64,000 nucleotides of DNA, taken from Eledone cirrhosa (taxonomy: Eukaryota). A model generated the notes under the pieces. The model made no database searches. It saw only the letters and a list, made by a program, of their open reading frames with translations, and had not been told where the DNA came from. Positions 13,598 to 63,346 of this stretch are shown here, piece by piece. The DNA lies in contig OZ024751.1 of the NCBI GenBank assembly GCA_964016885.1, forward strand, positions 31,248,001 to 31,312,000, read 5' to 3'. The position numbers and the translations under genes were made by a program. Position 1 is the first letter of the stretch, and each line of letters begins with the position of its first letter.

Positions 13598-13655
13598 ATA
13601 CTATGATCATTTCAATGACCGGGTTCCGTATGAATCCAGTGATTTCATCAGGTAT
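13598..13655 (-). ncRNA. Type I hammerhead ribozyme motif (PLE pseudo-LTR)
   Basis: ATAC-CTGATGA-AAT C ACTGG A TTC atacg GAA C CCGGT C ATT-GAAA-TGATCA-TA-GTAT: stem I ATAC/GTAT, palindromic stem III ATGATCAT, AUA site, AATAAA immediately downstream. Confidence 0.85.
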
Positions 13656-13911
13656 TCGAAATATAACAAAGGAATATGTAAAAACCATTGGTCCGAAAAT
13701 CAGAGAGAGAGCATGACTGACCAACTAACTGTTTTCACCTTGGTCCTGTTATTTTATTCATAATATATATATATATATATATATATATATACATACATAC
13801 ATATATATACATATGTATATACATATGTATATACATATGTATATATATTAGAAAGTGAGGTTTTTTTACAAAATGAAAAATAACCGGTGTTCTACATGAG
13901 TGAAAGTATAA

Positions 13912-14022
13912 AGAAAAAAAGATGAAATCGAAAATGCAACAGGAGTCTTATTTTCAAAAAAAATATATATATTTTTTAAAAAATAAGACTCCAGTTGCAT
14001 TTTCGATTTCATCTTTTTTTCT
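13912..14022. repeat. About 110-bp near-perfect palindrome
   Basis: AAAAGATGAAATCGAAAATGCAACAGGAGTCTTATTTT ... AAAATAAGACTCCAGTTGCATTTTCGATTTCATCTTTT. Confidence 0.9.
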
Positions 14023-14044
14023 ATATATATATATATATATATAT

Positions 14045-14387
14045 TCATTCATTTCATTTCATTTCATTTTACATCCGCTTTTTCCCTGCTTGCAAGGGTG
14101 GGACGGGAACTGATTCTGGCTTGATTTCTACAACTGGATACCCTTCCTAACACCAACCTCATTTACAGTGAGTGCTGGGTGCTTTTTTGCCGTGGCACCT
14201 CCATGACCACTTTGTAGTGGAATGATAGGAACCCCAGTCCTATCATCTCATTTCTACAGCTGAGTAAACTGGAGCAATATGAAATAAAGTGTCTTGCTCA
14301 AGGAAACAACACATCACACGGTCTGAGAATTGAACTCACAATCTTTCGATTGCAAGGCCAATGCTCTAACCACTAAGCCATGTGCCT
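14045..14387 (-). mobile_element. tRNA-derived SINE with RTE-derived 3' tail
   Basis: A box TGGCTTAGTGG, B box GAGTTCAATTC; 3' part matches the 3' UTR of the RTE at 14968-15540; near-identical copy at 53655-53990. Confidence 0.85.
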
Positions 14388-14967
14388 ATATATATATATA
14401 AAAAAGATGAAATCGAAAATGTGTGTATATATATATATATATATATATATATATATATATATACACACGCACATGCATGTATGTATAGTTTTAACAGATG
14501 AAAGGCCTTCTCCTAAGCTGTAAAAAAATCAATCAATAATGATATGTCAGGTAAACTAGGTGAATGTTTGTAAAGCAGTAAGTTAACTAAGCTTAGTCAG
14601 CAAACCGGTTTTCTGTCCTGGTTGTATCAGTTTCGCTTCACTTTTTACATATGTAATTATATCGTTAGTAAAATGTTTTGTTGTTGTTGTTTAACACCAG
14701 GTCAATCCTGACCAAACTGACCTACTATCAAAGGTATTTCACTATTAATTCTCCTGTGTTTTTGCCTATCTATAACTAAGTAGTTCAATATAAAGACACA
14801 CATAGACAGACAGACATCCACACACATCTATATATATATATATCATCATCACCGTTTTATGTATATTCGTCCACGCTAGCATGGGTTAGATGGGTTGTCC
14901 TGTTGTGGGCGACGTTAGGTCGGGTGACCTTGTCTTGCTCATACGAGAACTGATATATATATATATC

Positions 14968-59680: not shown

Positions 59681-60984
59681 GAATATCAATATGTGATGAT
59701 GCATGTGACCTTTTTTTGTGTGCGTGCCAGTATGTGTATATACCAGTGTGTATATATGTCAGTGTCTATATGTGTGTGTGTGTGTGTGTGTCAGTATGTA
59801 TGTGTGTCTACATATATATGTGTATGTGTGTACATATATATGTGTATGTGTGTGTGTGTGTACATATGTATGTGTGTGTGTACATATATATGTGTATGTG
59901 TGTGTGTACATATATGTGTATGTGTGTGTGTGTGTACATATGTATGTGTGTGTGTACATATATATGTGTATGTGTGTGTGTACATATGTATGTGTGTGTG
60001 TGTGTACATATGTATGTGTGTGTGTACATATATATGTGTATGTGTGTGTACCCAGTTGACATAAGATAACAAGACACAATCCTAGATTACCGATTGTTTT
60101 AAAGTGGGGGGGTGTAGGGGGTGTTATCTGGAGTGTGAGGAGGGGGGTGATATGGAGTGTGAGGGGAGGTGATGATTTGGGGGAGGGGAGGAAGTAATCT
60201 GGGCTAACGGTTGGGGGGTGATGATCTGGAGTGGGGGTAGGGGTGGTATGGTGGGGGTTGATGGTGGGGGGGGGGGGATCTGGGGGTAGAGGGGTGTTAC
60301 CTTGGGTGTGAAGGGAGGGAGTGATCTGGGCTGAAGTTTTTTTTTAGGGGGGGGATCTGGATTGGGGGGTCTGGTGTGAAGGGAGGGGGTGATGCGGGGA
60401 GTGTAGGGTTTTGGGGCTTGGGGTTATCTGGTGTGAGGGGAGGGGTTATTTGGGGGGGGGAGTGTAGGTTTTGGGATTGGGGTCATCTGGGGGTGAAAGG
60501 CCAAGGGGTTATCTGGGGTTGGGTTAATCTCCATAGCAACAAGACCAGTTTTACCAGCTATTGTTGTTGTTTGACCCCAGTGTCAGATTAGATCAAAGCT
60601 GTTCCAATTGTGGCCATCCCTATCTAGAACAGGAGGAGGAGGAAAGGTGAAAGGGTGAGGGGAAGGGTGGAGACGGGGCTGAGAGGGGGGAGGCCATGGG
60701 GACCTACTATTGTTGAATATCTAGAAAATACAACAGGATTAAAATATATGAAATGTGTGTGTGTGTGTGTGTGTATATGTATGTATTAATGAATGTCTGT
60801 GTGTATGCATGTGTGGGGTGTGTATATGTATATACTTGTGTATGTATGTATGTGTTAATGAATGTTTGTGTGTATGTATGTGGGGTGTGTGTGTATATGT
60901 GTGTGTGTGTACTTTGGGCCTAGAAGACACCGGAAGGATGAGCAGAAAAACAGACAGACGAAGAGAGGGATAAGATGAACCAGC

Positions 60985-62010
60985 GAGAGGGAGAGAGAAA
61001 GAGTGACACTCAGAGACAGACAAACAGGTAAGAGAAGAAGGTCAGACAGACAGGTAAGAAGAGAGAGAGAGAGAGAGAGAAGAGGGAGACTGAGAGAGAG
61101 AGAGAGTAAGAAACTGAGAGAGAGAGAGAGACTGAGAGAAGAGGGAGACTGAGAGAGAGAGAGAGAGACTGAGAGAGAGACTGAGAGAGAGAGAGAGAGA
61201 CTGAGAGAGAGAGAGAGAGAAGAGAGAGACTGAGAGAGAGAGAGAGAGAGAGAGAGAGAAGAGAGAGACTGAGAGAGAGAGAGAGAGACTGAGAGAGAGA
61301 CTGAGAGAGAGAGAGAGAGAGACTGAGAGAGAGAGAGAGAAGAGAGAGACTGAGAGAGAGAGAGAGAAGAGAGAGACTGAGAGAGAGAGAGAGAGACTGA
61401 GAGAGAGACTGAGAGAGAGAGAGAGAAAGAGTGACACTCAGAGACAGACAAACAGGTAAGAGAAGAAGGTCAGACAGACAGGTAAGAAGAGAGAGAGAGA
61501 GAAGAGGGAGACTGAGAGAGAGAGAGAGAGTAAGAGACTGAGAGAGAGAGAGAGAGAGAGAGAGAGAGAAGAGGGAGACTGAGAGAGAGAGAGAGAGTAA
61601 GAGACTGAGAGAGAGAGAGAGAGAGAGAGAGAAGAGGGAGACTGAGAGAGAGAGAGAGAGACTGAGAGAGAGAGAGAGTAAGAGACTGAGAGAGAGAGAG
61701 AGAGAGAGAGAAGAGGGAGACTGAGAGAGAGAGAGAGAGACTGAGAGAGAGACTGAGAGAGAGAGAGAGAGACTGAGAGAGAGAGAGAGAGAAGAGAGAG
61801 AGAGACTGAGAGAGAGACTGAGAGAGACTGAGAGAGAGAGAAGAGAGAGAGAGTCAGGTAAGAGAAGAAACACAGACAGACAAGCAGACAGACAGGCAGA
61901 CAGACACACAGGTAAGATGAGCCAGCCTGACAGACAGAGAGACACACAGACAAACTGACAGACAGACAGAGAGTGACACACTGACAGCCAGCCTGACTGT
62001 CAGACAGGTA
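60985..62010. repeat. (GA)n/GACT complex repeat with a higher-order duplication of about 430 bp
   Basis: GAGTGACACTCAGAGACAGACAAACAGGTAAGAGAAGAAGGTCAGACAG at about 61001 and 61429. Confidence 0.9.
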
Positions 62011-63049
62011 AAACAAGCCAGCCAGACAAGATGGCCATCTCTGACAAGTGAACTGACAGACAAGATATTCTCATCCCTGACAGGATCAACTTGTTTTGTT
62101 GTTGTTGTTGCTGTTGTTGTTGTTGCTGTGTTGTTGTTGTTGTTGCTGTTGTTGTTGTTGTTGTTGCTGTGTTGTTGTTGCTGTGTTGTTGTAAGGTTCA
62201 CAAGAAGAATAACACCAGCTTTGATTTAAGAAACACCCAATGTCCTTTATTATACTCACATACATATCTATGTATATCTATATGTATATATATATGTATA
62301 TATATGTATATGTATGTATATATATATATATATATATATATATATGATGCTAGCGTGGAAGATGGACGTTAAACGAAGATGATGATGATGATGATGATGA
62401 TATATTTATATATATATATTATCCTTATCGAGCCCTCTTCATATATATATATATATATATATATATATAACGAAGGAAATGTGGTAAGGAACCAGGTGGA
62501 CCATAACGCACCAAAGTACTCAATACTTGAGGTAGTAGAGTGGGTAATAGGAACCAGTATTGTCCAGAATTAGCCGTCGAAACGGCTTGAGCTCAGCTGT
62601 CGGGGTCTTACTGGTTCCTATATATATATATATATATGAATGGCTTCTACAGGACTAGATGATTTCTCCCGAACTTATTTTGATTGAACCCGGGATAAAC
62701 ATATATATATATATATATATATATATATATATATATATTAAATTTATAAATTTAATTTATAATAAATTGGAGTGAAAGCAACTGGTGCGTGTGTTTCTTA
62801 TTGGCAACATGACCCTCCCAAAGTATAACAATATCGGTTTCAACACATGTTTTCAGATAAAGAATCTTGCTAAACAAATTCAGAAACGAAATATATATTA
62901 TTAACTCGGAATAACGTATATATATATATATATATATATATATATATATATATATATATATATATACGTTATTCCGGGTTGAATCGGAGGTAACCACTGT
63001 AAGTAAGGTACTCAATACATTGCAGAGTATAAAAGTTTTAATATAGATG

Positions 63050-63100
63050 AGATTCTACAGGACTAGAACTGTTTCATTCTTTAGAAATCATCAGGAATCT
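63050..63100 (-). ncRNA. Type I hammerhead ribozyme motif
   Basis: Reverse complement of 63296-63346. Confidence 0.82.
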
Positions 63101-63295
63101 GGGTATCAAAAAATAAATATGGTATTTATAGGTCTCTTCAGGTGATAGGAGAGGGTAGGGAGTGGGATGGGTGGAGGTCATTGGTTGATAGAAAAGGGAA
63201 TTCATTAAAAGCTAATTCTTCAAAGCTATAGTTTATTTTTAGAGTAACAAAGGCAGAAAGAATTCTATAAATACCATACTTATTTTTTGATACCC

Positions 63296-63346
63296 AGATT
63301 CCTGATGATTTCTAAAGAATGAAACAGTTCTAGTCCTGTAGAATCT
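63296..63346 (+). ncRNA. Type I hammerhead ribozyme motif
   Basis: AGATTC-CTGATGA-T TTC taaa GAA T-GAAACAG ttctagtc CTGTA-GAATCT: 6-bp stem I, 4-bp stem III, GUA site at 63338-63340. Confidence 0.82.

Follow-up and report, generated by a model that had tools for sequence, protein, structure and literature searches.

Hammerhead ribozymes in a repeat-rich stretch of the Eledone cirrhosa genome as probable 3' ends of truncated Penelope-like elements

We analysed 64 kb of the Eledone cirrhosa genome (assembly GCA_964016885.1, contig OZ024751.1, positions 31,248,001 to 31,312,000; the window, numbered from its first letter), in which a sequence-only reading had noted ten hammerhead ribozyme motifs. 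In our judgement these ten hammerheads are probably the 3' ends of several families of Penelope-like elements (PLEs), present as short 5'-truncated insertions at (TA)n tracts. Judged by motif form, one class of them, class C, likely stems from Neptune- or Poseidon-type parents and another, class D, likely from a parent of the Hydra clade.

The hammerhead test consisted of the CUGANGA, GAAA and NUH boxes joined by stems I to III and open at stem I. Its type I descriptor tolerates a single additional base behind the core or a single mismatched pair at the foot of stem II, a relaxation that was made only once the motifs had been seen. The window is eukaryotic-looking and 56% simple or tandem repeat, leaving 28,232 bases after masking. 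A type I hammerhead closed at 10 of its 20 CTGANGA cores, and these are exactly the ten motifs with full core and closing stems described earlier, each reported position marking a stem I end. When the relaxed descriptor was run on 150 shuffles of each kind, closed motifs averaged 0.03 (global), 0.19 (500-nt blocks) and 0.13 (200-nt blocks), with a maximum of 2 across all 450, so that the claimed motif density withstood comparison with shuffled sequence. The core heptamer was not enriched (20 observed, block-shuffle mean 20.5), indicating that the signal resides in the stems. Stem I has at least 3 pairs in nine motifs; the weak cases are 37158, with 2 pairs, and 34381, where a C.A mismatch at the first stem I pair is followed by 10 pairs.

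Three further traits of the sequence-only reading were borne out, namely a palindromic stem III in most motifs, AATAAA just downstream in several and (TA)n flanking most. Stem III is wholly self-complementary (G.U allowed) in six of the ten and 75% self-complementary in the other four. A poly(A) signal (AATAAA or ATTAAA) is found no more than 45 nt from the cut site of eight motifs, compared to 6% of 5,000 random unmasked positions; seven motifs have (TA)5 or a longer tract in the 130 nt downstream, compared to 23% of such positions. We chose these thresholds ourselves, the 130-nt one post hoc, and the motif copies are not independent. The Rfam hammerhead models, which had been proposed as a check, gave no match in the window at gathering threshold, the sole match being tRNA-like, and an E-value run yielded no hammerhead among the 150 of 462 weaker matches examined, all of them microRNA models on microsatellites. 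Overall, the window carries ten complete motifs within 28 kb of non-simple sequence, and the ribozyme-bearing units span at least 3,151 nt, or 4.9% of its length.

The ten motifs sort into five classes (A to E) at nine sites, since 63050 and 63296 make up one inverted pair. Stem II is long in class A (core 13651) and class B (cores 27323, 34391), and their stem III consists of 8 self-complementary nt. Class C (cores 26694, 56874, 37160) carries an additional A behind the core; its stem II is 4 bp long, and a 4-nt palindrome serves as stem III. In class D (cores 38147, 63094, 63302), stem I has 6 bp, stem II has 3 bp and sits on a U.U mismatch, and stem III has 4 bp and an 8-nt near-palindromic loop. 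Class E (core 37551) has a stem II region of 84 nt. Pieces of two classes beyond these lie at 29284 and 62579. The earlier count of at least five classes with unrelated stems stands for the five complete classes, and is qualified in that 26663 and 56843 are 90.5% identical copies and the ten motifs represent nine sites. Internal repeats were mapped by self-BLAST on the masked sequence; together with sequence inspection, this located all the decayed or half copies previously placed at 10586-10682, 28300, 29284 and 62575. The units are as follows, cut sites being predictions.

13598-13655 (-): class A hammerhead, core starting at 13651; 31-nt stem II region with an internal loop; stem III an 8-nt palindrome; predicted AUA cut after 13602.
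26571-26833 (-): class C unit of 263 nt; minimal hammerhead 26663-26698, predicted GUU cut after 26667.
26978-27421 (+): class B unit; an inverted repeat (26978-27002 with 27201-27225) precedes hammerhead 27315-27379, which has an 8-bp stem I and a predicted AUA cut after 27371.
34298-34491 (+): class B unit; a hairpin (34298-34359) precedes hammerhead 34380-34451, whose first stem I pair is mismatched.
36880-37279 (+): class C unit with an approximate 5' boundary, its upstream part likewise high-copy; minimal hammerhead 37158-37189, 2-bp stem I, predicted GUC cut after 37187.
37547-37658 (+): class E hammerhead; 84-nt stem II region, predicted GUA cut after 37654.
38085-38207 (+): class D site; inverted tail 38085-38143 head-to-head with hammerhead 38141-38191, which starts at stem I; predicted GUA cut after 38185.
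56751-57012 (-): second copy of the class C unit; minimal hammerhead 56843-56878.
62966-63264 (-): class D unit of greatest length, reaching 170 nt upstream from its core; hammerhead 63050-63100, followed by a 90-nt tail up to (TA)n.
63265-63347 (+): class D inverted partner of the preceding unit, 83 nt and 98.8% identical to it; hammerhead 63296-63346, tailless, stopping at (TA)n.
10514-10684: class D variant; two ribozyme-internal truncated copies head-to-head, with a tail on the minus-strand copy alone.
28280-28345 (-): class D copy with a decayed core.
62636-62700: class D fragments, head-to-head, with internal deletions.
29284-29322 (+): decayed hammerhead of a further class, read by eye; first core box altered at two positions, stems preserved.
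62477-62619: 3' half-hammerhead of a further class; GAAA at 62579, 5-bp stem III with a palindromic loop, GUC; its inverted partner bears a D-like tail motif.

How these units are inserted is the first line of evidence for a PLE origin. PLE insertions typically show an inverted 5'-truncated copy and a tail of 30-40 bp at one end (PMC8557442), and PLE hammerheads are mostly single motifs, highly varied within a genome and sometimes inverted 100-700 bp apart (PMC4209133). In the window, head-to-head inverted pieces occur at four of the five class D sites with a tail on one member only, and no two of the eight class D pieces share a 5' end. At 62966-63347, the minus-strand copy with its 90-nt tail faces an 83-nt inverted partner that ends 7 nt past the cut site, and inverted repeats also lie 5' of both class B motifs. 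An inverted 5'-truncated partner, a one-sided tail and an AT-rich target were found together at the four class D sites and at 62477-62619. On sequence comparison, the truncations and one-sided-tail inverted pairs of class D are therefore supported as agreeing with the published anatomy. Since the nearest cores of the same class and strand are 7 kb apart, the window holds no retrozyme array, and no head-to-tail array of hammerheads was found within its 64 kb.

Two side observations concern the same sites. A 104-nt near-perfect inverted repeat (29143-29246) lies directly 5' of the decayed motif at 29284. A 10-nt tail motif is common to 10563, 38134, 62525 and 63017 (all minus strand), downstream of class D and of the 62579 half-motif, and the tail of one Hydra-clade family in the PMC8557442 sequence files has a stretch resembling it.

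The second line of evidence is the form of the motifs and their association with PLE proteins elsewhere. Class C, comprising three of the ten motifs, has the minimal hammerhead form with an extra nucleotide after A9, G10.1-C11.1 and a palindromic remnant of stem III. Searching metagenome contigs with the class C pattern returned at least 123 matches in at least 120 loci. Among the matches listed, 64 close both stem I (at least 3 pairs) and stem II (at least 4 pairs). In 95 unique motifs, kinship being ignored, the free positions of the pattern pair at 0.61-0.92 compared to 0.38-0.54 when shuffled. Of the 62 listed motifs with at least 400 nt of upstream sequence, 17 have PLE coding sequence upstream of them on their own strand, as have 11 of 56 once the six seed loci are excluded, mostly 70-165 nt off; Pfam identified GIY-YIG in four of seven seeds, all in contigs of other organisms. 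By these comparisons, class C is the published minimal PLE hammerhead form and appears downstream of GIY-YIG open reading frames (ORFs) in other organisms' contigs.

Class D fits the Hydra-clade form given in File S2 of PMC8557442, in which U.U or U.C stands below stem II and stem III, of the acag/ctgt kind, has 4 bp; nearly all Hydra-clade hammerhead families in that file have (TA)n targets. The mismatch below stem II had been considered as a new variant and was dropped, since that file lists the U.Y form. In prokaryote genomes, both stems of a D-like pattern closed in 2 of 120 matches, both at one site (L169). Here the motif lies in two 151-nt direct repeats flanking a frameshifted ORF with RWK and DKT motifs, accompanied by a 602-nt inverted copy; because Pfam did not flag the ORF, the Hydra-type call rests on these two motifs. 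This element (L169:2987-6247) adjoins bacterial-looking genes in a 491-kb contig of a bacterial metagenome-assembled genome and is likely host DNA joined during assembly. The D pattern had four viral matches, none closing stem I by inspection, and no metagenome matches.

Within the window itself, the sequence-only reading had recognised no Penelope ORF with reverse transcriptase (RT) and GIY-YIG domains, and our searches agree. No PLE coding sequence was detected by Pfam on 60 chosen window peptides or by two C-terminal PLE profiles, and no PLE ORF by 8 seed PLE proteins (best E 0.025) or a Hydra profile of 120 proteins (best E 1.9). The longest class D copy extends just 170 nt upstream of the core, and the Hydra profile revealed no RWK/DKT ORF in the window. 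In the absence of an RT and GIY-YIG ORF the units are filed as PLE-like end fragments, whose parents' membership we infer. Candidate coding remnants were rejected at 36562, at the 5' frame of the duplicated class C unit, at 29377-29484 (E 0.41) and at 27169-27234 (E 0.34). A Naiad origin of classes A and B was likewise rejected, as short-motif searches of the Naiad sequence files of PMC8557442 gave only unrelated matches.

Folding calculations are consistent with ribozymes that act in pairs. Stem III of a class D motif (D63) was computed at -12.8 kcal/mol as a self-duplex compared to -1.4 as a hairpin, and stem III alone forms no hairpin in classes A, B, C and E. A self-duplex favoured over the hairpin fits dimer cleavage (review, PMC6765202). 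The proposed link to PLEs and dimer-type hammerheads thus gained support from the forms of classes C and D, the GIY-YIG association, L169 and the stem III duplexes. Because the hammerhead is not the minimum-energy fold of class D and the transcript of an inverted pair would fold on itself, the solo and inverted copies in the window are predicted to be mostly inert.

We propose that a full-length parent elsewhere in the genome would supply an RT/GIY-YIG protein that nicks AT-rich DNA, and that reverse transcription would start inside the RNA, a short way past the ribozyme. In vitro, reverse transcription of an Anolis PLE was primed at nicked DNA and started inside the RNA past the ribozyme; cleavage needed protein and was dispensable for insertion (PMC11167929). 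If copying mostly halted after 50-400 nt, the ribozyme, poly(A) signal and tail would be kept and the ORF lost, and second-strand priming would likely yield the tailless head-to-head partner. The ribozymes of the parent RNA would pair through their self-complementary stem III and cleave as dimers, perhaps aided by protein.

Several findings weigh against PLE ends as the source. No parent was found for any class, and the clades, proposed for classes C and D only, were assigned from the form of the motifs and not from DNA continuous with an ORF; among the metagenome matches listed, 45 of the 62 class C motifs have no detectable upstream PLE coding sequence. A 41-residue frame upstream of class D was rejected as a coding remnant, its only match among 1.84 billion proteins being an unrelated repeat protein. 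The class D tail extends some 70 nt further than the end of its partner, compared to the published 30-40 nt, and loop III of class D has 8 nt, compared to 0-3 nt in the Hydra-clade rows of File S2 (PMC8557442). The hammerhead fold of class D is not the minimum-energy one (-4.8 versus -8.2) and, by inspection, neither is that of most other motifs. Within this genome's own classes no covariation was seen, the stem II pairs of class D being invariant and only the loops varying. Moreover, the two class C copies termed C1 (26571-26833 and 56751-57012), 30 kb apart, have both ends in common over 263 nt, which is unexpected under random truncation.

To gauge abundance, the stretch 36880-38260 was mapped against four read runs, whose summed depth is not equivalent to copy number. 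In run X1, summed depth was 1.03 million for the class D motif, 0.20-0.25 million for class C and 0.015-0.077 million for class E, with a short interspersed element (SINE) at 1.7-5.4 million and flank at 0.009-0.022 million as comparators. Raw restriction site-associated DNA (RAD) reads of X14 gave depths of about 2,500 (D), 1,300 (C) and 530 (E), and of 3-6 in two flank bins. Classes C, D and E are high-copy, and dividing summed depth by contig depth (3-31), a crude measure, suggests tens to hundreds of thousands of D copies. Class D was found also in runs of two other organisms. Many molecules in the RAD reads match only the 3' part of class E (37604-37669) and end at 37604, which suggests a second subfamily or a truncation hot spot.

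The shared ends of the C1 pair bring up an alternative that we regard as unlikely though worth stating: some classes, above all C1, could be dedicated short non-autonomous elements with fixed ends, self-transcribed and mobilised in trans by PLE proteins. This would accommodate two copies with both ends in common, the lack of an ORF remnant in any unit and a class D read depth within a few-fold of that of the SINE, and a preprint traces animal retrozymes to PLE terminal repeats (10.64898/2026.07.22.740005). However, all D 5' ends differ, two C1 copies are a small sample, and the C1 5' end opens with a TA-like stretch, so that repeated truncation at target microhomology could explain the shared ends. 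The sequence-only reading had gone further and proposed a large radiation of ribozyme-bearing non-autonomous or retrozyme-like elements. For most units this did not hold, given the 7-kb spacing, the differing D 5' ends, the PLE insertion anatomy and the already printed forms of classes C and D; it retains a minority in its favour, consisting of the C1 pair and a head-to-tail class D repeat in the reads.

That repeat is seen as class D joints that return to 38140 from 38203, 38205 and 38207 across 14, 12 and 10 intervening letters, respectively, which amounts to a constant 78-nt period. The joints occur in X1 contigs (four junction variants listed) and in 65 raw X14 reads with 18 starts, and the tandem accounts for about 3% of D depth in X14 (RAD) and less than 0.1% in X1. 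It may represent a small retrozyme, or else a partial tandem of the ordinary sort, set by resemblance between the two flanks of the motif. One conjecture, which we hold to be improbable, is that a Hydra-clade PLE end gave rise to a 78-nt head-to-tail mini-retrozyme, shorter than the animal retrozymes of the papers cited, whose near-palindromic 16-nt stem III locks transcripts, neighbouring or separate, into active dimers. Given solo D copies in the tens of thousands or more, their transcripts could also be activated by one another in trans and cut host RNAs, and this genome would be among the most hammerhead-dense described. More doubtful still is that a class D sub-lineage is a true retrozyme, with neighbouring ribozymes of the 78-nt head-to-tail repeat dimerising and releasing a small RNA that circularises. 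The constant period of the joints in both contigs and raw reads and the strong stem III self-duplex would suit this, but the tandem is a minority in both runs, none lies within the window, a dimer and an array are indistinguishable in short reads, and PLEs form partial tandems anyway, whose period the similar flanking sequences could fix. As for chance matches in an AT-rich, repeat-rich window, with which the unenriched heptamer and the lack of an Rfam hammerhead at gathering threshold would agree, we count them as already refuted by ten motifs versus at most 2 in any shuffle and by a D-like pattern that, among its 120 prokaryote matches, closes both stems only at one PLE site.

We therefore keep to truncated PLE ends, parts of which are already known: the class C and D motif forms are in print, and the repeats themselves may already be catalogued. 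No published account of these families turned up in our literature search on octopus, cephalopod and Hydra-type PLE hammerheads, which drew little on subscription papers and not on the repeat collections Repbase and Dfam. A search for motifs in the supplements of octopus studies gave no match, four files of PMC9115989 lying outside it. On this reading, the window contributes several unlisted families of hammerheads and illustrates how densely PLE-derived ribozyme motifs can be packed. The units offer natural test material for the role of PLE hammerheads, given their dispensability for insertion in vitro (PMC11167929), and the much greater stability of the stem III self-duplex over the hairpin makes class D a suitable substrate for testing dimer cleavage. 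Should a circular RNA be produced from the 78-nt tandem, this would document the emergence of a retrozyme out of a PLE end.

Other features of the window include a 421-codon open frame at 57820-59085 (-) with short acidic repeats and a PDZ domain, for which no homolog was found among longer proteins. It is probably a host exon, and the nearby minus-strand hammerheads could lie within introns of its gene. A fragment of an endonuclease of the non-LTR (LTR, long terminal repeat) retrotransposon type (29716-29946, -) abuts a 4.3-kb (TA)n-like tract (29689-34314), and similar tracts span 10091-13071 and 38935-42008. Related SINE-like copies lie at 37765-38062, 25319-25617, 26279-26529, 38496-38779, 14070-14400 and 53671-54003, and the tRNA-like stretch that passes the Rfam threshold at 14315-14383 (-). 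Fragments of long interspersed elements (LINEs) occupy 42770-43576 (+), 55223-56523 (-), 15253-15558 (-) and 53041-53478 (-); one has a PHD finger inside its RT region and matches many RT and PHD proteins, and the best named matches of the RTE sequence are cnidarian (43-51%). Long minisatellites with 27-bp and 32-bp units fill 29-2626 and 3243-6649.

Among known systems, the minimal hammerheads of PLEs (PMC4209133) resemble class C in being type I, with the extra nucleotide after A9, G10.1-C11.1, a short stem I and the palindromic stem III remnant, and resemble the window as a whole in occurring mostly as single copies, with many families per genome and inverted pairs. Classes A, B, D and E differ from them in a longer stem III and other forms of stem II. 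Hydra-clade hammerheads (PMC8557442, File S2) share with class D the U after the first core box and the U or C before GAA, and their elements also share the short stem II, the 4-bp acag/ctgt stem III, the (TA)n target and the inverted 5'-truncated partner. Class D departs from the File S2 rows in its 3-bp stem II and a sequence matching none of them, Hydra-1_Obim included, and, unlike Hydra-clade PLEs, the window copies have no ORF attached. Naiad PLEs, which occur in cephalopods, likewise have (TA)n targets and inverted structures; according to PMC8557442 they have no canonical hammerheads, whereas the window motifs close all stems, and short motifs of classes A, B and D found no relevant match in its Naiad sequence files. 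Animal non-LTR retrozymes (PMC7229834; Li et al. preprint 2026), of which the axolotl has up to 120,000 (PMC7229834), are similarly ORF-less, low in G+C and very high in copy number, with a type I hammerhead. Their units, of about 150-450 bp and with one ribozyme each, are repeated head-to-tail, an arrangement absent from the window and resembled only by the minor, shorter 78-nt tandem in the reads. At the level of genomes, 6.83% of Octopus vulgaris consists of PLEs, which fall into 190 families (PMC13282606), and the giant squid genome has 235 Rfam hammerheads (PMC6962438). Compared with the genomes named in PMC4209133, with about 2,000-9,000 minimal hammerheads each, the window, if typical, would point to a far higher density.

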